From Bacilli bacterium (GTDB lineage Bacteria > Bacillota_I > Bacilli_A > RFN20 > CAG-826): a DNA stretch of 64,000 nt. Location of the stretch: NCBI GenBank assembly GCA_045226015.1, contig JBGVBY010000013.1, positions 147,922 through 211,921 of the forward strand, read 5' to 3'. Below the pieces are notes generated by a model. It was given only the letters and a program-made list of their open reading frames with translations, was not told the DNA's origin and did no database searches. The position numbers were made by a program, and so were the translations under genes. Shown here piece after piece: positions 18,372 to 32,057 of the stretch (the first letter of the stretch is position 1; every line of letters begins with the position of its first letter).

Positions 18372-20693
18372 TTGAAAGCGAATACTATGTTAGATACTTA
18401 TAAGGTTTTGGAATTCTCTCTTATTCAAGGCAGAATCGTAGAAAAATGTAAGACAGAAAGAGGAAAAGAACTCACTCTTTCTTTAGAAATGTCTACGAAT
18501 AAAGACGAACTTCAAAAGTCTTTAAACAAACTTGATGAAATGATGAATCTTATTTCTAGATACGGCGCTTTACCAATCCATAATAGTGTTCATATCCTTA
18601 AGCTAATTGAACTCGCTAAAAAGACTGCCTTACTCACACCTAATGATCTCAATTTTGTTCTTAATGATATTGAAACCTCAAACAAAATCATTGAACAATT
18701 TGATAAATATAGTCTTTCTTTCCCACTTATTAGAGAAATTATTTTCTCTATGAAAGAACTTTCAAGTCTAGAGAAAGCTATCAAAAAAGTTATCACTCAA
18801 TCTTTAACAGTAAGTGATAACGCTAGTCCAAAACTAAAAGAAATCAGACAAAAGATTAAATCTTTAGAGAGTGGATTAAACTCCAAAGTCTCCTCTTTAG
18901 CGTATTCCTACTCTACTTACTTAAATGATGGAAACGTTACAATCAGAGATGGACATTTTGTTTTACCAGTTAAGACCGCTTATAAAAATAAAGTCCTTGG
19001 TATTATCTATGATGTCAGTGATAGTGGTAACACAACATTTATTGAGCCATTAGAGTTAGTCCAACTTAATAACGATATCGCTTCAAAGAAAATCGAAGAA
19101 AATGAAGAAGTAAGAAAAATCTTAAAAGAACTTACCGCTTTAGTGTTACTTCAAGAAGACGAAGTCATCCATAATAACTTAGTGATTGGAGAACTCGATT
19201 TCTTAAGCGCGAAAGCATTATATGCTTTAGAAGATGATATGCATATCGCTAAGTTATCTAACAAAAAGGAAGTACATTTATATGACGCTCGTCATCCTTT
19301 GATTGATAAAAGTAAAGTTGTTAGTAACGAATACCATCTTGATGAAGAAAAAAGAATCGTCATCATCAGTGGTCCTAACGCCGGAGGAAAAACTGTTTCA
19401 TTAAAAACAGTGGGACTTCTTTCCTTAATGAATCAATGTGGACTTGCTATACCAGTTAAAGAAGGAGCGTTAGGAATCTTTTCACATATCTATTTAGATA
19501 TCGGAGACAATCAATCTCTTAGTGATAACCTATCTACCTTCTCTGGACATATGAAAAATATCGCCGATATCTTATCAGTCACAGGCGGTAACGATTTAGT
19601 GCTACTAGATGAACTTGGTACAGGTACCGATCCAAAAGAAGGAGAAATCATCGCCTTAACAATACTTAAGGAACTTGAAAAGAAACATTCTTTAGCGATG
19701 ATTTCATCACACTATAGCAAGATCAAAGAATACGCTTACTTAAGTAAGAATATCGAAAATAGCTCTATGCTTTTCGATGAAAAGAACTTACTTCCTACAT
19801 ATATTTATAAATACCAGACTCCAGGTAAGTCATACGGGTTTGAAGTTGCGGAAAGATATGGAATATCTAAAGAGGCAATTGAAACCACCAAAGAGGAGTT
19901 CTTAAAAGACGATAAAAATGACTTTGAAGAGCTATTAACTAAACTACAAAAGCAAATCGATGAAAACGAACGTATAAGAAGAAATAATCTTCACGAAAGA
20001 GAAAATCTCGAAAAGGAAAGAAAAACCTTAGAGAACGCTCAAAAGAACGTTCAAAACCAAAAAGATCATCTTCTTGAAGATGTCAAAAAAGAAAAAGAAA
20101 GAATTTTAAACGAACTAAACGGAGAAGTTAATCAAATCATCAAGTCTTTAAGCGGTGGAGAACTTAAACTTCACGAGGCAATCGAACTCAAAAAGAAAGT
20201 GGATGCACTTAAAGATGAAGAGATTGAAATAACCTATAACGAAGAAATTGATATTAATGATTATGTTTCCGTTCCTTCTTTAAACTTAGAAGGTAAAGTT
20301 ATACGTCTAAAAGGAAATAAGGCACATATTATCACTATCGAAGGTATTGAGATGGATGTATCTAAAGATAAACTCCATAAAGTAGACGCTCCTAAAGTGA
20401 GCCATGTGAAGTCTAAATCCTATAATTACGAAAACAAAATCAATACGAATGTTGGTTTAGAACTCAATATTATTGGTTTACATAAAGATGAAGCAAAAGA
20501 AGCTTTGATCAAATATTTGGATAACTGCAAAATCAAAAACATCAAACAAGTACGCATCATCCATGGTTTTGGTAATGGAATCTTGCGTAAAATGGTGCAT
20601 GAATATTTATCCACACTTAAGGGAGTCAAATATCGTTTAGGGGATATCAACGAAGGAGGAGGCGGAGCAACCGTCGTCATTCTTCATGACTGA
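18372..20693 (+). CDS. mutS2: Endonuclease MutS2 (MutS domain plus C-terminal Smr)
   Basis: Walker A GPNAGGKT and a C-terminal Smr domain (LNIIGLHKDEA...VRIIHGFGNG). The start could instead be the ATG at 18384. Confidence 0.92.
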   Translation: MKANTMLDTYKVLEFSLIQGRIVEKCKTERGKELTLSLEMSTNKDELQKSLNKLDEMMNLISRYGALPIHNSVHILKLIELAKKTALLTPNDLNFVLNDIETSNKIIEQFDKYSLSFPLIREIIFSMKELSSLEKAIKKVITQSLTVSDNASPKLKEIRQKIKSLESGLNSKVSSLAYSYSTYLNDGNVTIRDGHFVLPVKTAYKNKVLGIIYDVSDSGNTTFIEPLELVQLNNDIASKKIEENEEVRKILKELTALVLLQEDEVIHNNLVIGELDFLSAKALYALEDDMHIAKLSNKKEVHLYDARHPLIDKSKVVSNEYHLDEEKRIVIISGPNAGGKTVSLKTVGLLSLMNQCGLAIPVKEGALGIFSHIYLDIGDNQSLSDNLSTFSGHMKNIADILSVTGGNDLVLLDELGTGTDPKEGEIIALTILKELEKKHSLAMISSHYSKIKEYAYLSKNIENSSMLFDEKNLLPTYIYKYQTPGKSYGFEVAERYGISKEAIETTKEEFLKDDKNDFEELLTKLQKQIDENERIRRNNLHERENLEKERKTLENAQKNVQNQKDHLLEDVKKEKERILNELNGEVNQIIKSLSGGELKLHEAIELKKKVDALKDEEIEITYNEEIDINDYVSVPSLNLEGKVIRLKGNKAHIITIEGIEMDVSKDKLHKVDAPKVSHVKSKSYNYENKINTNVGLELNIIGLHKDEAKEALIKYLDNCKIKNIKQVRIIHGFGNGILRKMVHEYLSTLKGVKYRLGDINEGGGGATVVILHD

Positions 20694-22437
20694 GAAAATT
20701 AAGCTCCTCATTTCTAATCTTAAACACTCTCCTGGAGTGTATTTAATGCACGATGTTAATGGGACTATTATCTATGTTGGCAAAGCCAAAGACCTCCAAA
20801 AAAGAGTGTCACAATATTTTTTACGTCCTCAAACTGGAAAAGTTTTTAAGATGGTGCAATCTGTCGATTATTTTGAGACCATCATCGTTCAAAATGAAAA
20901 AGAAGCACTTATCTTAGAAATGAATCTAATTAAGGAACATTACCCTAGATTCAATATCCTTCTAAAAGATGGAAGTCATTACCCATATATTGCAATCAAA
21001 AAGAAGGGTGATGTCACTCTTACTATTAAAAGAAATAATAAAGACAAAGGTTATGACTATTATGGACCATACCCTAATAGTGGAGCGGCCTACAAAATGG
21101 TGGATCTCCTTAATAAAATCTACCCAATCAGAAAATGTCGTTCTATACCTAGTTCAGTGTGTCTATATTATCACCTTGGACAATGTTTAGCCCCTTGCGT
21201 CAATAAAATCGACGAAAGTGAGTATGATACGTTAAGAGAAAAGATAAAATCTTTTCTAAATGGCAATAATGACGAAGTTATTAAAGAGTTAAAAGTAAAG
21301 ATGAACATTGCTAGTGAGTCACTCAACTACGAACTTGCTAGAGACTATAAAAACCTCATTGATTCTATTGAACACATCAATACTTCAATGTCTGTAGAAC
21401 TCAAAGACAAAATTGATCGCGATATTTTCGCTTATTCTACTAGAAATGGCTATATATCAATCGCGTTCCTTCTTTTTAGAAATGGAATGTTATTAGGCAA
21501 AGAAAGTCATGTTGTGGAATCCTTTGGAGAAATTGAAGAACAAGTTAGCGACTTAATCACTCAGTTCTACGACAAGATGCCTTTACCAACTCAAATCATC
21601 ATAAATGATGATAAGGTTATAGATAACTTAAGTGGATATTTAGACACTAGTATTTTAAAAGTGTCGCGTGGACACATCTATGATTTGGTGATGTCAGCGA
21701 AAAGTAATGCGGATAACGCGCTTGATGAGTATTTCCTTTCTTCTAAACTAGACGAAGATAAGGTTGCTTTATTAGAAGAACTTGGAGAACTTTTATCTAT
21801 CTCCACTCCATATCATATCGAATTATTTGATAATTCTCATTTACAAGGCTCTTCTCCAGTGGGAGCGATGGTGACCTTCATTAACGGAGAACCAGCAAAA
21901 AACTTATATAGAAAATTTAAAATCGAGCACGATGAGGCTCGCGATGACTTTAAGAGCATGGAAGAAGTGATCACTCGTCATTACTCTAGACTTAAAAATG
22001 ATCACAAAAAGTATCCAGACTTAATCTTAGTGGATGGAGGATTGCCCCAAGTTAAAAGTGCTTCTCAAGCGTTAAAGAATATTGAAGTAGATATTCCTGT
22101 CTATGGTTTATTTAAGAATGATAAACACTCCACAAGTGGATTAATCGATATTGATGGAAATGAATATCCTATTACTGATAAGAAGTTATTTTTCTTATTA
22201 ACAAGGATGCAAGATGAAGTACATCGCTTTGCGATCTCTTTCCATAAGGAGAAAAGAAATAAGGCAATGACTGTCTCGATTTTTGATGAAGTAAATGGAT
22301 TAGGTCAAAAAAGAAGAGAATTAATTTCTAAGTTCTACCCCGATATCAATTCGTTAAACGAAGCGACAGTGGAGGAACTAAGTCAAATTCTTCCTAAAGA
22401 CGTTGCTACTTCTTTGTTTAATAAATTACACAATTAA
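20686..22437 (+). CDS. uvrC: Excinuclease ABC subunit C
   Basis: GIY-YIG motif (GVYLMHDVNGTIIYVGKAKDLQKR), UvrBC-interacting and RNase H-like/HhH C-terminal regions. Its ATG overlaps the mutS2 TGA stop. Confidence 0.95.
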   Translation: MTEKIKLLISNLKHSPGVYLMHDVNGTIIYVGKAKDLQKRVSQYFLRPQTGKVFKMVQSVDYFETIIVQNEKEALILEMNLIKEHYPRFNILLKDGSHYPYIAIKKKGDVTLTIKRNNKDKGYDYYGPYPNSGAAYKMVDLLNKIYPIRKCRSIPSSVCLYYHLGQCLAPCVNKIDESEYDTLREKIKSFLNGNNDEVIKELKVKMNIASESLNYELARDYKNLIDSIEHINTSMSVELKDKIDRDIFAYSTRNGYISIAFLLFRNGMLLGKESHVVESFGEIEEQVSDLITQFYDKMPLPTQIIINDDKVIDNLSGYLDTSILKVSRGHIYDLVMSAKSNADNALDEYFLSSKLDEDKVALLEELGELLSISTPYHIELFDNSHLQGSSPVGAMVTFINGEPAKNLYRKFKIEHDEARDDFKSMEEVITRHYSRLKNDHKKYPDLILVDGGLPQVKSASQALKNIEVDIPVYGLFKNDKHSTSGLIDIDGNEYPITDKKLFFLLTRMQDEVHRFAISFHKEKRNKAMTVSIFDEVNGLGQKRRELISKFYPDINSLNEATVEELSQILPKDVATSLFNKLHN

Positions 22438-22489: not shown

Positions 22490-22566
<77 letters not shown>

Positions 22567-24612: not shown

Positions 24613-25176
24613 ATGAAAAAAGAAATCAAAACCAAAGACGCAATATTTCCAATGCCAGTGCTTTTAATATCAACATTTAATGAAGACGGAAGTGTTGATG
24701 TCATGAACGCTGCATGGGGAACAATGCTTGATCAAGGTGTTGTCGCTTTAAATTTAAGCGAAACACATAAAACGGTTGAGAATATCAAAGTTAGAAAAGG
24801 ACTTGTGGTCCATATTGCTGATGCAAAGCATGTTGTGGAAGCTGATTATTTTGGAATGGTCAGTGGACATAGAGAGCCTAAAAAGTTTGAAAAATCAAAA
24901 TTAACATGTGTTAAATCCGAACTTGTAGACGCTCCAATTATTAATGAATTTCCAATCGCCATAGAATGCGAATTCGTTGAATTCCAAAACGATGCAACAG
25001 GCATCGGATTAATCGCTAAGGTTCTAAGAACCTCTGTTGAAGAAAATTGTCTAACAGATGGTAAAGTAGATATCAATAAAGTTGAAGCTATCGCCTTTGA
25101 TCCATACACTCATAGCTACTATAAAGTCCATACAAGAGTGGGAGACGCCTTCAAAGACGGACTTAAATTAAAATAG
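24613..25176 (+). CDS. Flavin reductase-like (FMN-binding split-barrel) protein
   Basis: IFPMPVLLISTFNEDGSVDVMNAAWG, typical of the flavin reductase-like domain. An AGGAG RBS precedes the ATG at 24613; the track start at 24568 is probably too early. Confidence 0.65.
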   Translation: MKKEIKTKDAIFPMPVLLISTFNEDGSVDVMNAAWGTMLDQGVVALNLSETHKTVENIKVRKGLVVHIADAKHVVEADYFGMVSGHREPKKFEKSKLTCVKSELVDAPIINEFPIAIECEFVEFQNDATGIGLIAKVLRTSVEENCLTDGKVDINKVEAIAFDPYTHSYYKVHTRVGDAFKDGLKLK

Positions 25177-25217
25177 TTTTAAAATCATAATACGATTAAC
25201 TTTGATGCTGGATGGTG

Positions 25218-26276
25218 TCAATGTTTTTTATTTTTAGACAGCTCTTTTTCAATTTCTTCTATAGAAGGTAAACTGCCTTTGTAATTATCAGGAATTAATT
25301 TAGATAATTCAAACGAAGAAACGCCTAATGGCTGAGAAGAAGATTCCATGGAATAACTTGCTAATACATTATCTTTGTCTTTACAAACAAGAATACCAAT
25401 TGTCTTTGAATCTATCTCGCTTTTTAAGATATGATCAACTGCTACTACATATGTGCCTAATTGACCTGTATATTCTGGCTTGAAAGTAGTGGTTTTAACT
25501 TCAATAACAACATAGGCATGTACTTGAGTGTTATAGAATAACATATCTAGGAATTGTTCTGTTTCTCCAACCATTAAACGATATTCTCTTCCTATGTATG
25601 CAAAGCCAGTTCCTAACTCTAATAGGAATTTTTGAATGTTATTAATTAATGCATCTTTTAATTCTTTTTCTGAGAAATCATTATCAAGGGAAATGAAATT
25701 AAAATTATAAGGATCCTTCGTCAGTTGTTTTGCTAAATCGCTATTTTCTTTTGGTAATGTTAATTCAAAATTGTTAATAGCCTTACCTTGCCTTTCATAA
25801 AGATTAGAATCAAGTTGGACTCTTAAAATTGATCTAGACCATCCATTTTCTATTGTTTTTTGAATATAAAATAGAGCTTTCTTTCGGTCTTTTTTCACCT
25901 TGTCTAGAAGAATAAGAATATGGCCCCAAGGCACCATTGTAATTTGCGCAACAACTTGCTGCGTAATTTTATTTTCCGGAAACAATTCATAGAATTGATG
26001 CATTGCTTGAAGGTTTCTTATAGAGAATCCTCTAGCGTCTTGAAACTGCTCATTTAGGTCTTTTGAAAGGGATGCATAAAATTTAGAACCCCATCTAGCT
26101 TCACTTTTCATTTTTACGATGTCTCTTCCAAGTGACCAATAAAAACGAATTAATTCACTGTTTACATGAACTGCTGCTTTGATTTGAGATTGTCTATATC
26201 TCTTTTTTAATTCTTTTATCCAGTTTTGATAATCTTCATCAAGTATGGATAATACTTTTTCACTAACTTCTTTCAT
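25218..26276 (-). CDS. DUF1016 (YhcG-like) PD-(D/E)XK nuclease-fold protein
   Basis: Characteristic DUF1016 N-terminus (NSELIRFYWSLGRDI...WGSKF...LSKDL...ARGFSIRNLQAM..FY) and a C-terminal PD-(D/E)XK-like core. Confidence 0.75.
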   Translation of the reverse strand: MKEVSEKVLSILDEDYQNWIKELKKRYRQSQIKAAVHVNSELIRFYWSLGRDIVKMKSEARWGSKFYASLSKDLNEQFQDARGFSIRNLQAMHQFYELFPENKITQQVVAQITMVPWGHILILLDKVKKDRKKALFYIQKTIENGWSRSILRVQLDSNLYERQGKAINNFELTLPKENSDLAKQLTKDPYNFNFISLDNDFSEKELKDALINNIQKFLLELGTGFAYIGREYRLMVGETEQFLDMLFYNTQVHAYVVIEVKTTTFKPEYTGQLGTYVVAVDHILKSEIDSKTIGILVCKDKDNVLASYSMESSSQPLGVSSFELSKLIPDNYKGSLPSIEEIEKELSKNKKH

Positions 26277-26730
26277 AATAAAATCTCCTTTCGATAGTTA
26301 GGCAAAGTGATGCTTTCAAAAGGAGATAAAAAGCCATCCAAATTGAAAACACCTTTTTGTAACTAACTGCTGATATCCCTATCAACCATAGTTACTGGTG
26401 TTTCATCCCACGTTGGATGGCCTCTGATTCAAATGCTAATAATTGTGTGGAGCGTGGACGATGATATCGTCTTCTGGGCGATGCTTTCCACAATGCAAGA
26501 TCCTAACACGTCCAATCTTGCAGTTTATAGTAGGGTGCCCTATCGTGTACCTGCGTATGGTCGACTTTGCTTATAGCTAGTTCATAGCGCCGATAGTCTG
26601 CTAATATATACACTTTTATTATAAGTTTTTGTTGTCTATGCATCAATGTAATTTATTTATAAATTATTAGGCAGTTACTAAAAACAAGAGTAATATGATA
26701 GGTAGTTATTTTTAAAAGAGGAAATGTATT

Positions 26731-27051
26731 ATGAGTGCTATTGAAATTGCAGTTTTGATTTTATCAAGTGTTGACGCTTTTTGCTGTGTTGTCTGTCGAG
26801 TACCTCAAGTAGTGAGGTTGATCAAATTAAAAGAATCTCAAGCTATTTCGATTCCTTTCTGGGCGTGTAACATTTTATCTTGTTTTATGTGTATTACTGC
26901 TTATTCTTTGCAGTTATCAATTGGTAATATTTCAATGGTTATCTTCTTATGTTCAGCGACATTTAATCTTGTGCTTAACACTTTGATTTTCTTCTTGGTT
27001 CGTAAGTATCGTAAGAGAAACTCTAAAATGACTCCAGTAGTGCAGCAATAA
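26731..27051 (+). CDS. Small 3-TM PQ-loop membrane protein (SemiSWEET-like)
   Basis: 106 aa, three predicted TM helices, with a PQ motif in TM1 (CRVPQVVRLIK). Confidence 0.5.
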   Translation: MSAIEIAVLILSSVDAFCCVVCRVPQVVRLIKLKESQAISIPFWACNILSCFMCITAYSLQLSIGNISMVIFLCSATFNLVLNTLIFFLVRKYRKRNSKMTPVVQQ

Positions 27052-27685
27052 CTCTTTGTAATACTTCATTCACTTTATAGACGTTATCTTCATATAAAGT
27101 GCCTCTTAATTCATTATTAGAGATGATTCTAAACGCGATTGTAGGAATCATCTTTTCTTTACAAGCTTTATATATAGCGATAGTCTCCATGTCTTCACAT
27201 AAATGATGATGTTTACTGTGTAAAGATTTAATCATTTCTTTATCTTTGGTGAAGAAATCTCCTGATAGAGTCGCTCCGTGACGAATATGGGCAGTAGAGT
27301 TTTTGTCTAGTAATTTTCCTAACTTTTCATCACCTTTAATAACTATTTTCGTTTCATCAATTACATCCCAAGTAGATGTAGGAGTGTTACTCATGACATA
27401 ACCTCCGTGATAAATTGCTTCATCACAAATAACAATGTCTCCATCGTTAACGTCTAAAGTGTGTCCACCTGCAGTTCCAATGTTAATCACAATATCTGGA
27501 TGAATTTCTTCAATTAAAGAGTTAGTGGATGAAAAAGCGTTTATGATACCCACTCCTGTAAGAGCGGTGTATATTTCGTTATCATTTATTTTTGCAAAGC
27601 AAAAATTAACTTTTGATTCTGCTTTAATAAGTTTGTTCAACAAAGAAATTTCTTTAGTTAGGGCCGCTAAAATCAGGATTTTCAT
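27023..27685 (-). CDS. mtnN: 5'-methylthioadenosine/S-adenosylhomocysteine nucleosidase
   Basis: PNP/UDP phosphorylase fold motifs VINIGTAGG, SGDFF and EDMET. Confidence 0.85.
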   Translation of the reverse strand: MKILILAALTKEISLLNKLIKAESKVNFCFAKINDNEIYTALTGVGIINAFSSTNSLIEEIHPDIVINIGTAGGHTLDVNDGDIVICDEAIYHGGYVMSNTPTSTWDVIDETKIVIKGDEKLGKLLDKNSTAHIRHGATLSGDFFTKDKEMIKSLHSKHHHLCEDMETIAIYKACKEKMIPTIAFRIISNNELRGTLYEDNVYKVNEVLQRVIAALLESF

Positions 27686-27806
27686 ATTTCAATTATCAAA
27701 CAATTCTCTCTCAAAGTCTAATTATAACTATGTAATGTGTTATTTATTTTAAATAAGAAGTGTGATAGATTAATACCGTTAGATCAAATAATGAAGAGGT
27801 AGAAAT

Positions 27807-30329
27807 ATGATCAAGAAATTTCTCGGTATCACAGCTTTATCTTTAGCGTTTTCAGTCGGATTAAACACTAATTCCATTAAAGAAGAAACTGCTAAACCAA
27901 TTAAAGATAACCATTACTCATTAATCACTGATGATGTTCAAATTAAATCAAGTGATTCGCAGTGGTCAGCTTTTACTGGAAGTTACGCTCACGTTAATGG
28001 AAGTAGCATTGTCTTTAGTGAAATAGCTACTGGTGCAGACGCTAAATACGACCAATTAACAAAGACTTTAACTTTATATAACGATGAATCTTATCCCCTT
28101 ATTGATGGAGTTAAGGCTAGTGGTGAACTCGATTTAAAGATTGAATTTACTTGTGATTACAACGAAGATCACATGATTTGTTTTGAGCTTGATTGTGATA
28201 GTGCAGAATTAACTTCTACCGATAAGCATTCAATTTCTGTTTCATATTTATTCTCTAAAGACTTAACGTTATCAGGAAATTTAACTACTGTTGTCAATTT
28301 CTTTAAAGATAGTAGTGTTGCTGACGCATTTTTTGATCAAAGCATTGATCCACCTCATAACACTATTTTTGGAGCAACAAATTTCAATCTTAAAGGTAAT
28401 GCATCTTTAGATGGAACAAACGTCTATAACATGAGTAGCGTTAAAGAGCTTTATAAACCAAGCGATTTCTCGCTCTTTGCTTTAGATAATATGTATATCA
28501 ACACGAACGGATTCTTTAATATTGGAATGGATGCTTCTTCAAAATTCCCTACTGATTTTAACTGCTTGTTAAAAGTTGAAACTTTACCTTCTATTTTAAA
28601 ATGTGATCAAGGCTTCGCTATGAGATGCACAAATGGTAGGATTACCAATCTTGACGAATTAAACTATGTATTTGGTCAGTATTTTAACAATCATTACTAT
28701 ACGAATTTTCAACCAAATTATAAAATATTAAGCACTGTTAAAGAATGCACTTTGGCACCTTTATTTCACGCTACAGACATTCAAGCCGATGAAATCGCTA
28801 TTTATAATGATTCCACCAAGAAAAACTTTACTAACTATGAATATAGTGGATTAAAATTTGAAGATGGTGTTGTTGTTTTTGAAAAAGGTTGCACCTACAA
28901 TAATTTGATTATTGTAGAATCAAAAGGTAATAGGCCAGTTGATCTTGTTATTAGATTTGAAGAAGGCTCTTATGGTTCTATCTCTAGCATTCATAACAAA
29001 TTATTAATTATCAATAGATACGGAAATATCACTTTAACTACCGGTGAAAAAGAAGCGCATGTTGATTTGGGTGCGGTTTGCTGTACAGGCATTCTCTTTA
29101 TTAACGGCAATCTCAGTGTTAGAGAAAGAGGAACTATAGACTACTCTACAGCGTCTTCTTTTCCGATGTACATAATGGATTCGTATGCATATATTAGTAC
29201 TCACGGACTAATTAATGGTGATATCCAAATTGTAATTGAAGAAAATGCTTCTTTATACGCTGTCGGATCAGCATATGATTTTGGATTTATGTCAACTACC
29301 TTTGAAGGTGGTAATGTAGCGATTATTCGTACTGATAGATTATTGGTTACAACAAATAAATCTGTTACTCTCGGTTCGGTAACTAAACCTGAGAGTAGTA
29401 TTAGATACATAACTGCTCTTTCTTTTAATAGAATTACTTCCCAATATTGCTTATTAAGAAATCAAAAGAGTATTGAAGGTGCTACATTCAAAATTTATAG
29501 ATACAAACATACCGGTGTTGCGTTCTCAAATCCTGGTAGTTTTGATGGCTTTTGTAACGAATCTAAGACAACATATACTCTTTATAATGATGAAGAGCAC
29601 GAAAACGTTGAAATTGCTGAATTTAATACAAATAGTGTAGATAACTGGATTAAAAACCGTGTAATAACATTTGCTCCTAATGGTGGATATGGCACTATGC
29701 CAGAAGTAAATGGTTTAGTGGCCTATCAATTCTACACACTTCCAGAATGTAGTTTCATTGCTCCACTTGGTAAATTGTTTAAAGGTTGGGCGTTCAAAGA
29801 TAAAGATCCAAATGTGATTAAACAACCTGGTGAATTAGTCCAAGTTATTAGTCTTTCTTTAGAGATTTATCCAGTTTGGGAAGATTCTCCGGTTCAACCG
29901 TTGTCTGGAACAGTAACAATTGCTGGTAATTTAAAAGTTGGACAAACATTAGTTGCTGTTGTTACAGGTTCAAATAACACTGGTATTCTTTCTTATCAAT
30001 GGAGAAGAAATGGCGAAGATATCATTGGTGCGACTAGCAGCACTTATGTCCCTACTGAAGAAGACGTCGGTTACACTTTAAGTGTAGTCGTTACTAGCTC
30101 TATTGAAACAGGATCAATCATTGGAAGCGCAACTGGTGTCATCTCAGAAGCAGATGCTCCAGTGGTTCCAGTCGCTGATAGCGGCTCTAAAGGACTTAGT
30201 GGCGGCGCTATCGCAGGAATTATTATCGCTTCTATCTTAGTGGTAGGTATTGGAGGAGCTGCTATCTACTGGTTTATTATTAAAAAGAAAACCTGGGCAG
30301 ACTTCGTTAACTTATTCAAAAAGAAATAA
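27807..30329 (+). CDS. Large surface protein with Listeria/Bacteroides-type (Flg_new) repeats and a C-terminal TM anchor
   Basis: Signal peptide, the ITFAPNGGYGTMPEV...FKGWAF repeat, a C-terminal hydrophobic helix (AGIIIASILVVGIGGAAIYWFII) and a KKK stop-transfer sequence. Confidence 0.55.
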   Translation: MIKKFLGITALSLAFSVGLNTNSIKEETAKPIKDNHYSLITDDVQIKSSDSQWSAFTGSYAHVNGSSIVFSEIATGADAKYDQLTKTLTLYNDESYPLIDGVKASGELDLKIEFTCDYNEDHMICFELDCDSAELTSTDKHSISVSYLFSKDLTLSGNLTTVVNFFKDSSVADAFFDQSIDPPHNTIFGATNFNLKGNASLDGTNVYNMSSVKELYKPSDFSLFALDNMYINTNGFFNIGMDASSKFPTDFNCLLKVETLPSILKCDQGFAMRCTNGRITNLDELNYVFGQYFNNHYYTNFQPNYKILSTVKECTLAPLFHATDIQADEIAIYNDSTKKNFTNYEYSGLKFEDGVVVFEKGCTYNNLIIVESKGNRPVDLVIRFEEGSYGSISSIHNKLLIINRYGNITLTTGEKEAHVDLGAVCCTGILFINGNLSVRERGTIDYSTASSFPMYIMDSYAYISTHGLINGDIQIVIEENASLYAVGSAYDFGFMSTTFEGGNVAIIRTDRLLVTTNKSVTLGSVTKPESSIRYITALSFNRITSQYCLLRNQKSIEGATFKIYRYKHTGVAFSNPGSFDGFCNESKTTYTLYNDEEHENVEIAEFNTNSVDNWIKNRVITFAPNGGYGTMPEVNGLVAYQFYTLPECSFIAPLGKLFKGWAFKDKDPNVIKQPGELVQVISLSLEIYPVWEDSPVQPLSGTVTIAGNLKVGQTLVAVVTGSNNTGILSYQWRRNGEDIIGATSSTYVPTEEDVGYTLSVVVTSSIETGSIIGSATGVISEADAPVVPVADSGSKGLSGGAIAGIIIASILVVGIGGAAIYWFIIKKKTWADFVNLFKKK

Positions 30330-31000: not shown

Positions 31001-32057
31001 ACATCCACACCGCGAAAGCGATATGGAAGAGAATTAACTACTGATAAGTAGTTAGTAGACTCAAGACTAGGTAAGACAGTCACCGCGAAACAGAAGTTGA
31101 TACAGCGGATTCTAAAAAAAAGGTTTAGATTAATGACTGCTCTAGCAAGAGATGCCTTAAAACATCTCAAGGCTAAGTCCTCCCCGACAAAGTGGAAGCT
31201 GAGTTAGAACTTAACAGCGTAAAACCACCGCCTGACAAGAACGAAGAGGACAGATATGAGGTAATAGCCATATCAACCGACCGAGTCGTGCTAAGATCAA
31301 CTCAAAACACGAAATAAGTAAGAGAATTGCAAGATATCGCTTACAAAAAGGTTCGAAGTTCAGCTAACGTAAGACAATCAACCCATTACACGACGTTGAT
31401 AGTAAGGTTCTAGAATTAAAACTTCTAGTTAATGATTGCAGTTAACTTATCATCACTCGTGATGATTAAACGGCCCACCTCCCTGTTACAGTGGTCACTG
31501 AGTTAGAGTTTAACAGTGTAGAAAATCCACCGCCGGACACGATCAAAGAGGTAAAAACAAGACCTATTAACTAAAAAGAATAGGTAAAGCCTAATCCACA
31601 TTATTCAACTCAAAGTGTGGAGATAGTAGAAGAGTTACAAACCTCCTAGCATCTTCTATGAAAAAACGGTCTAATGAACTTAAGACTAGGTAAACCAATC
31701 AGGTCCTTGAATTGAGTGGGGACCTCTGGAAATCAAAAGCTTCCAGTTAAATGATTGTTCTAGCAAAGAATTAGGAGAGATCCTAATTATCGGTACGTTC
31801 CTCCCTGATAGCCTGCTATCACTGGTCCCTACGTTAAAGTTTGATAGGGTAAATCCAGCACCGGACATGACGAAGAGGAAAACAGCCTTGACGCTAATAA
31901 CGAAAGGAAGCTGGCCATCGATACGCTAATCAATTCAAAACGTATCAAAATCAAGAAGCACCACCAGCCAAAAGGAACTTAACTTGGATATTGTTGCAGG
32001 GTGAAATCCCCTGCACAGTATAACGGTTAGCGGTAAAGAGTAAAGCCGCTTTTTTTC
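31001..32057 (+). ncRNA. Candidate large structured ncRNA of three tandem ~300-320-nt homologous units, not assigned to any known family
   Basis: ~1.06 kb with no credible ORF and higher GC than the surrounding sequence. Three homologous units each begin TTAATGA(C/T)TG at 31133, 31432 and 31751. Each has a hairpin at the same offset with a different sequence and a CCUCC/GAGGA helix whose flanking base co-varies. An upstream promoter and a downstream intrinsic terminator (32029..32057) flank it. Confidence 0.55.
32029..32057 (+). terminator. Intrinsic terminator for the candidate ncRNA
   Basis: AGCGG-taaagagtaaag-CCGCT followed by TTTTTTT. Confidence 0.6.

Follow-up and report, generated by a model that had tools for sequence, protein, structure and literature searches.

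Within a 64,000-nucleotide stretch of contig JBGVBY010000013.1 from a Bacilli bacterium of the genus CAG-826 (hereafter the window), a divergent spacer of 454 bases separates a nuclease gene on the minus strand (start codon at 26276) from a PQ-loop gene on the plus strand (start at 26731). We conclude, with a probability of about 70%, that the island rich in guanine plus cytosine (GC) in this spacer is the 5′ leader of the mRNA for the minus-strand DUF1016/YhcG nuclease, that it belongs to the COG3943 RNA family, and that its functional unit spans about 330 nucleotides (nt) with a putative two-state switch. The locus is a further member of a catalogued orphan Rfam family. The original prediction had put the island forward as a new candidate RNA; its core was already in Rfam.

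The island (26330-26610) has a GC content of 42.7%, compared to a mean of 34.6% across the window (standard deviation 3.5%, 281-base segments), and this value was reached by 1.1% of 6372 segments of 281 bases. In 100-base segments, GC was 46-48% across 26400-26600 and 21-36% on both flanks. The minus strand of 26277-26660 folded to -97.7 kcal/mol, against -79.0 ± 4.5 kcal/mol for 100 dinucleotide shuffles (z = -4.1), and none of the 100 shuffles (0/100) folded as stably. The GC-rich, self-complementary island that had been proposed is real. All of the helices listed with it were also found, with coordinates 0-2 bases off (CCATCCAA, placed at 26333-26340, lies at 26334-26341, and the GACGAT hairpin, placed at 26455-26469, lies at 26457-26471). 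The decisive evidence came from a comparative alignment: we regard the island as beyond chance because its helices are conserved, with compensatory changes, in 57 aligned relatives.

An Rfam scan of both strands returned a sole significant match, which lies on the minus strand and thereby settled the strand. This match to RF02941, the "COG3943 RNA", at 26349-26456 (-) covered model positions 1-108 of 108 and, at 98.6 bits, exceeded the gathering score of 71.8 (E = 2e-18). It was reproduced in the Rfam scan of the whole window and is the one RF02941 copy in this genome (1.17 Mb, 22 contigs). Over 25000-28000, at E values up to 1, no RNA family besides COG3943 was matched except for a chance snoRNA row (E = 0.95), and no riboswitch or T-box model matched. 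The RF02941 match stops 72 nt 5′ of the nuclease start codon; the conserved leader reaches the start codon. The helices of the leader hold many G-U pairs on the minus strand, which become A-C on the opposite strand, so that the fold is strand-specific. Moreover, a same-strand gene lies directly 3′ of the RNA at all loci except those truncated by the end of a contig. We assign the RNA to the DUF1016 nuclease gene because the Rfam match is confined to the minus strand, because the G-U pairs make the fold strand-specific, and because the same-strand downstream gene has a sequestered ribosome-binding site. Of the original proposal, the structured RNA is upheld, as is, most probably, its role as a cis-regulatory leader, but the tie to the PQ-loop (SemiSWEET-like) gene is not, since the RNA is on the minus strand and precedes the DUF1016 nuclease gene instead; the PQ-loop gene as a target was ruled out by the opposite strand of the Rfam match. 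A decayed coding remnant was likewise rejected: there are only short open reading frames (ORFs; 33-47 amino acids [aa]) across the island, for which no protein search was made, and the alignment has indels and paired compensatory changes without codon patterns.

We determined the extent of the conserved RNA from its relatives. A scan for Rfam-level matches in 61 related genomes, which included 22 other genomes of the same genus, found RF02941-level copies at 29 places in 17 of the 61, with up to 3 copies per genome. The carriers comprised 15 of the 22 other same-genus genomes and 1 further genus, that is, 2 of the 34 genera of the order sampled; none was found in the 32 other genera of this sample, and a phylum-wide sample, in which 148 other genomes were scored and 2 were not, contained no copy; as samples, neither establishes absence. 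An nhmmer search with a profile of the first 29 loci gave 106 matches (81 unique), the majority covering profile positions 1-378, from the TTAGCAGAC block to the start codon. The conserved RNA thus exceeds the RF02941 model by about 150 nt on the 5′ side and about 70 nt on the 3′ side; the leader measures about 330 nt at this locus and reaches about 420 nt among the relatives. Fifty-seven full-length leaders were aligned (alignment A1), and all covariation counts below are based on this alignment.

A DNA pattern scan of 185,579 species' genomes gave at least 123 stretches, including chance matches in unrelated high-GC genomes, and added loci from the rumen, horse, deer and other guts that are labelled Bacilli, Erysipelotrichaceae, Mollicutes or Firmicutes. 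Two of its matches (L numbers are our locus labels) were rejected as members: Clostridium lundense L083:3323-3472 (-) and the identical IMG/VR stretch from a viral contig, L153:3323-3472 (-), carry Rfam RT-14 RNA instead (66.7 bits) and matched the pattern by chance. One of the five IMG/VR pattern matches (L157) is a true member. Its upstream ORF has a ribosomal L15 domain, so that L157 is probably host flank, and we do not claim carriage by a phage.

RNAalifold on A1 returned 44 pairs, 26 of them with compensatory changes. A structure of 46 pairs in 8 helices had 97.1% of its cells paired and 26 pairs changed on both sides, compared to at most 49.5% paired when the partners were slid by 1-3 columns. 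Its covariation score was reached by 0 of 500 shuffles, a statistic that overstates independence, as the sequences of A1 are close kin; the slid controls and the many double changes are stronger evidence than the shuffles. The helices of the RF02941 model are kept in the relatives, H7 and H5 with compensatory changes (in H7, 6 of 7 pairs were changed on both sides; in H5, 2 of 4), whereas the pairs of D:E and the core four pairs of A:B are invariant (segments A to F are defined in Table 1).

Upstream of the Rfam core, the conserved 5′ end lies about 14 nt downstream of a sigma-70-like candidate promoter, and a TATAAT-like box stands at equal distance 5′ of the conserved end in the alignment of the relatives. 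The first ~80 nt take two architectures among the relatives, with a weak consensus, and are the weakest part of the model. In hairpin H2, all nine pairs (9/9) were changed on both sides, 99% of cells were paired, and the loop GUGUU was invariant in 57/57 leaders. Of the 8 pairs in the long-range helix H3, 100% were paired and 3 were changed on both sides, for example UGUGGA/UCCACA versus UAGGGA/UCCCUA. The 3′ strand of H3 is the conserved 5′ end of the RF02941 model, in which it is unpaired. H3 encloses a conserved joining strand, AAAGCAUCGCCCAG (26474-26487), and a variable hairpin, H4 (26457-26471), which has 15 nt at this locus and as many as about 100 nt in relatives and is a closed hairpin. 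Two candidate pseudoknots would join this domain to the 3′ end: GUGUU in the H2 loop could pair with AACAC of D, and AAAGYAUC of the joining strand with E, and neither complementarity varies.

RNA libraries also contained sequences of this kind. Contigs at least 85% alike, from 4 runs of 4 studies, cover 26316-26623 and carry the larger H4 of relatives. In three of the runs, the contigs end at 26592-26609, without loose ends and near the predicted 5′ end, which suggests, weakly, that the RNA is transcribed from about this point.

At the 3′ end, the conserved pairings are mutually exclusive in silico: A:B versus A:C and D:E versus E:F. Three nested helices had been noted here, two of which are helices of the Rfam COG3943 model; the outermost, CCATCCAA/TTGGATGG, is a conserved long-range helix outside the model that competes with the model's local hairpin. 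This local hairpin, A:B, has 5 bp in 46/57 leaders and 4 bp in 11/57, the fifth pair being C-G in 25 and A-U in 21. Its competitor, A:C, reaches at least 7 contiguous bp in 56/57 leaders and at least 9 in 45/57, with extensions that covary (CCAAC/GUUGG, CAC/GUG and CCAGG/CUUGG). In a test for terminator type, the base of the A:C stem was GGCC/GGCU followed by the U tract, with 5-7 U within the 8 nt after C in 57/57 leaders and a hairpin that spans 82-124 nt. Segment E likewise has two partners. D:E is 97.9% paired. For E:F the figure is 91.6%, compared to 57% or less in slid controls; compensatory changes affect 4 of its 10 pairs, and in 49/57 leaders it forms an uninterrupted run of 8 bp or more around a loop no longer than 40 nt. 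Where the cargo gene was replaced, F included, the F of the new cargo keeps its complementarity to E, which argues for selection on E:F. The Shine-Dalgarno (SD) sequence is covered by at least 7 contiguous bp in 61/70 relatives, and its mean unpaired probability is 0.09. The minimum-energy folds of full leaders contained A:C in 56/57, D:E in 57/57 and E:F in 0/57 cases. The segment from A to C folded at a mean of -36.5 kcal/mol, and forcing A:B cost about 8.7 kcal/mol on average.

Table 1. Positions of the leader, its parts, the flanking genes and the repeats discussed in the text (numbering of the window)
Feature	Position	Strand	Basis or remark
Whole conserved leader RNA, ~328 nt, from the TTAGCAGAC block to the base before the start codon	26277-26604	-	nhmmer profile and 57-leader alignment
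RF02941 core	26349-26456	-	covariance-model match
Predicted regulated gene, 352-aa DUF1016_N + YhcG_C PD-(D/E)XK nuclease	25218-26276	-	Pfam, E = 3e-41 and 1e-55
Promoter-like site, TTGATG (26646-26641), 17-base spacer, TATAAT (26623-26618)	26618-26646	-	consensus scan, 10/12 matches
5′-most subdomain, closing stem GCGCUAU ... AUACGC	26553-26590	-	RNAalifold on subgroups of 41 and 13 sequences
Hairpin H2, invariant loop GUGUUAGG at 26502-26509	26494-26523	-	covariation
Long-range helix H3, UGUGGA (26487-26492) with UCCACA inside CGCUCCACA (26446-26454)	26446-26492	-	covariation
Segment A, GGCCAUCCAA, strand shared by both states	26413-26422	-	pairs with B (local) or C (long-range)
Segment B, GGAUG, local partner of A	26404-26408	-	RF02941 hairpin
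Segment D, AAACACC (26397-26403), then inner hairpin H7 (26359-26395)	26359-26403	-	RF02941 model; covariation in H7
Segment E, GGUGUUUUCAA	26343-26353	-	pairs with D or F
Segment C, UUGGAUGGCU (26332-26341), and U-rich tract to 26326	26326-26341	-	pairs with A; outer helix of the original prediction
Ribosome-binding-site hairpin, anti-SD AUCUCCUUUUGA (26316-26327) with UCGAAAGGAGAU (26283-26294)	26283-26327	-	12 bp here
Segment F, UUGAAAGCAUC, AAACACC-like block just after the anti-SD strand, in and beside the hairpin loop	26309-26319	-	pairs with E
Inverted repeat CCATCCAA / TTGGATGG	26334-26341 / 26413-26420	+ strand letters	sequence
Inverted repeat GAAAACACC / GGTGTTTC	26345-26353 / 26397-26404	+ strand letters	sequence
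Inverted repeat GTAACTA / TAGTTAC	26359-26365 / 26389-26395	+ strand letters	sequence
Hairpin GACGAT-GAT-ATCGTC	26457-26471	+ strand letters	sequence
Hairpin TAGGG-TGC-CCTA	26531-26542	+ strand letters	sequence
PQ-loop gene	26731-27051	+	identified by Pfam

As judged from its sequence, the leader looks like a switch acting in cis by which toxin or defence genes are kept off in the absence of a trigger, and this is our best reading of it. In the ground state, A:C, D:E and the pairing of anti-SD with SD would form together, yielding a long terminator-like hairpin followed by U's and a masked ribosome-binding site, and the gene would be OFF. In the alternative state, A:B and E:F would form, the terminator-like hairpin would be broken, and the anti-SD:SD helix would be crossed. 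This would also free the ribosome-binding site and turn the gene ON, unless E:F and anti-SD:SD stack as a pseudoknot. A trigger acting on the large conserved domain of 5′ part and core, whether small molecule, protein, RNA or processing event, might be sensed there and shift the balance.

Several observations weigh against this reading. The promoter, the terminator function of A:C with its U tract and the ON/OFF assignment are all deduced from sequence, and the kinship of the aligned leaders inflates the significance of the shuffles. In the A:C core, 1 of 7 pairs was changed on both sides, the support coming from the variable extensions, and D:E has no covariation support either way because its pairs never vary. 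A consensus terminator scan called no terminator here, as its loop limit is 8 nt. When A:B was forced, the mean unpaired probability of the SD sequence rose to just 0.25, and that of the copy at this locus stayed at 0.00; in addition, an H-type pseudoknot might accommodate both E:F and anti-SD:SD, and E:F would then leave the ribosome-binding site closed. The metatranscriptome contigs are those of relatives; they reveal neither the strand nor the ends nor the level of a transcript, the parts without cover are equally uninformative on level, and such libraries may contain DNA. At the BrnT loci (L003, L004 and L007), no start codon follows the leader's SD, and BrnT begins 38-40 nt further on, past a TATAAT-like stretch, so that control of BrnT by the leader is doubtful; the leader at these loci may be a remnant. 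Finally, the leader differs from riboswitches in having no known ligand, and none can be deduced from its cargo, since this consists of toxin or defence genes.

To describe the genes under the leader, we took a census of the first ORF behind 72 leaders. DUF1016 nucleases stood at 36/72 loci, a ~110-117-aa family with a MazF-like predicted fold at 11/72, RhuM+Fic proteins (PADLOC PDC-S23/S05, with a weak Doc-family match) at 9/72, BrnT/BrnA at 4/72, DUF4314 at 1/72 and an IS110 transposase at 1/72; at 10/72 loci, the fragments were too short to name. The nuclease gene of the present locus is the PADLOC defence candidate PDC-S02 (E = 3e-148). We take the name COG3943 RNA to imply a position before a COG3943 (RhuM) gene, a naming convention that stands outside the model itself. 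The RhuM (COG3943-type) gene that the name implies is absent here, where DUF1016/YhcG is found instead, and is present, with Fic, at the nine loci just mentioned. The DUF1016, RhuM-Fic and small ~110-117-aa families share no detectable domain (hhalign probability 0.2%). In some loci with a short ORF behind the leader (L016, L026, L063, L075, L081 and L100), a DUF1016 gene follows about 180 nt later; the short ORF of L100 has 61 aa and matches DUF4314.

The small family (L029:1074-1427 (-) and 10 homologues, alignment A2) had no Pfam, NCBIfam or PADLOC match. It has the conserved motifs KYHFR, HPF and NPNP.DD and a predicted structure with a mean predicted local distance difference test score (pLDDT) of 85.6. 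Its best Foldseek matches were all MazF toxins, at weak scores (E = 0.04-0.3, none at 0.001 or below, template-modelling score of about 0.5), and two language-model look-ups gave PemK/MazF as a lead. Nine of the 11 MazF-like genes have no adjacent same-strand ORF of at least 50 aa, and a hairpin followed by a U run stands behind those whose downstream sequence was inspected.

Genes of these types appear in the literature. DUF1016, RhuM and Fic/DOC genes were noted within type I restriction-modification loci (PMC9881135), and protection of E. coli B from T7, T5 and T4 was reported for a PDC-S05 gene of RhuM type (bioRxiv 10.1101/2024.09.26.614923). In that preprint, the single PDC-S02 (DUF1016-type) system assayed was not among the four protective systems.

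Comparison of syntenic sites showed that the cargo has been exchanged. L032 carries RhuM-Fic at the site at which L038 and L040 carry DUF1016. Between L032 and L038, the upstream flank is 92.9% identical over 1160 nt, the leader 96.8% and the downstream flank 95.9%, with similarity resuming at the terminator directly behind the stop codon. Likewise, L004 (BrnTA) and L014 and L022 (DUF1016) share a syntenic site and differ in cargo. Flanks at the swapped sites (L032, L038 and L040; L004, L014 and L022) are 88-96% identical, and the 5′ breakpoint of the swap lies inside the SD hairpin. Modules of leader and cargo also occur in tandem, as in L057/L058 and L075/L076 (pattern matches about 1.65 kb apart, same strand) and on contig G018:C51 at 20151-20261 and 21812-21918 (L011 and L024); these form small arrays of toxin-like or defence-like genes with one leader each. 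The near-identical leader before unrelated, exchanged cargo points to a portable promoter-plus-safety-catch module rather than to the partner of one particular protein. More tentatively, and with doubts that outweigh our confidence, we propose that this is a new large sensor leader that acts as a portable cis antitoxin for unguarded toxins and single-gene phage-defence effectors (DUF1016 nuclease, RhuM-Fic and MazF-like), that it would release these effectors only on sensing a macromolecular or infection-linked signal, and that the effectors are swapped by recombination.

The leader might instead be a free-standing RNA, that is, a trans-acting small RNA (sRNA) or type III-like antitoxin, that ends at the A:C hairpin and U tract and neutralises the toxin by binding the protein, as does the abiF-motif RNA RCd22. 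Rfam itself types RF02941 as "Gene; sRNA", and in 57/57 leaders, the terminator-like hairpin and U tract stand 5′ of the gene. Some RNA-library contigs are short and cover the leader alone, one of them 156 nt long with a depth of 208, a depth that is uninformative on expression level. The lack of a neighbouring same-strand ORF as protein antitoxin at most MazF-like loci would also be consistent with such an RNA. A precedent exists: a preprint describes the abiF-motif RNA, which is associated with the abiF toxin gene, as acting in cis and in trans via direct RNA-protein contact (bioRxiv 10.1101/2025.04.15.648962). Against this, a 96.8%-identical leader precedes proteins that share no detectable domain, so that one antitoxin RNA would have to bind at least 3 different folds. 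Tandem Repeats Finder returned 0 rows for 26200-26750, that is, no ToxI-type tandem repeats, and the conserved anti-SD:SD and E:F pairings, which reach into the mRNA, point to action in cis. We thus consider a free-standing RNA improbable.

At syntenic sites, cargo was replaced precisely in the interval that runs from the leader's 3′ end to the terminator behind the gene. Together with up to 3 copies per genome, tandem modules and tRNA genes that, in 6/10 loci checked, lie on the opposite strand no more than a few hundred bases past the module, this could also be taken to mean that the conserved block acts as DNA, as a recombination handle or cassette boundary, with the RNA fold secondary. However, the compensatory changes keep pairs of RNA type, including the many G-U pairs, and the block faces the gene in the same direction in every case, with the SD-masking helix at its end. 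Among the listed flanking ORFs, which were not scanned against protein families, none was conspicuous as a recombinase gene, and the sole IS110 transposase (L091), as the first ORF past the leader at +241 nt, is insertion-like. Homologous recombination between leader copies would suffice without any special DNA function, and we consider this explanation very unlikely.

Least probable of all, by analogy with the HEARO/omega RNAs beside IscB, is a guide or cofactor RNA for the DUF1016 nuclease: a large structured RNA does lie directly 5′ of a nuclease gene in 36/72 loci, but the leader also precedes RhuM-Fic (without a nuclease domain), BrnT and the MazF-like family, no guide-like variable single-stranded end was seen, the variable H4 being a closed hairpin, and the SD-masking helix argues for control of translation.

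Other elements were observed around the modules. In the window, a tRNA gene lies at 22490-22563 (+; 61.4 bits), about 2.7 kb past the 3′ end of the DUF1016 gene, and three Rfam RF02946 cow-rumen-1 RNA matches (72-75 bits) fall within 31189-31878 (+). A conserved block, CTAGACGCTTCTCCTAAAAAGC...GGGTTTCCCACGA..., follows the cargo terminator in L029, L050, L059 and L062, and L050 has an opposite-strand tRNA nearby.

RF02941, a candidate structured RNA, presumably originates from Weinberg et al. 2017 (Nucleic Acids Res 45:10811). Our literature search found no paper discussing the COG3943 RNA, and the main text of that presumed source does not contain the name, though its supplement may describe gene associations or the larger structure; the larger structure, the two-state platform and the range of cargo may thus have been described before. 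The cis-acting leader set out above gives an orphan family that has been catalogued for years a defined extent, the full RNA being about 3 times the size of the RF02941 model, and its two-state platform with named strands makes the mechanism testable by mutation and restoration. The setting adds to this interest, as the leader would gate toxin-like and candidate anti-phage genes; if it senses infection or stress, it would be a modular RNA-level trigger for defence effectors.

Compared to the RF02941 model, the RNA matches in full above the gathering score, and the hairpins A:B, D:E and H7 are present, with H7 covarying. It differs in its larger size, in its DUF1016 cargo, in that the model's unpaired 5′ block is paired in H3, and in that A:B has a conserved competitor in A:C. 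With riboswitch- and T-box-type leaders, it shares a position in the 5′ untranslated region, a large, conserved sensor-like domain, mutually exclusive helices built on a common strand, a hairpin and U tract 5′ of the gene, and a masked ribosome-binding site. It is larger than most small-molecule aptamers, and, unlike the genes under riboswitches, its toxin-like and defence-like genes point to no metabolite.

Type III toxin-antitoxin RNAs are built differently: our leader has no repeated motifs or tandem repeats, and it stands before at least 3 unrelated cargo families. In hok-like type I toxin mRNAs, the full-length fold closes the ribosome-binding site until processing triggers refolding. The leader resembles them as the mRNA of a toxin with its own fold-back translation lock and an alternative fold; it differs in that no antisense RNA gene or small hydrophobic toxin was seen here and in that it is far larger and common to several toxin families. 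RCd22 of Clostridioides difficile, as described in the preprint cited above, is, like the leader, an orphan structured RNA directly 5′ of a toxic defence gene, which it controls negatively. RCd22 binds one cognate protein, however, whereas the leader described here stands before unrelated cargo families.

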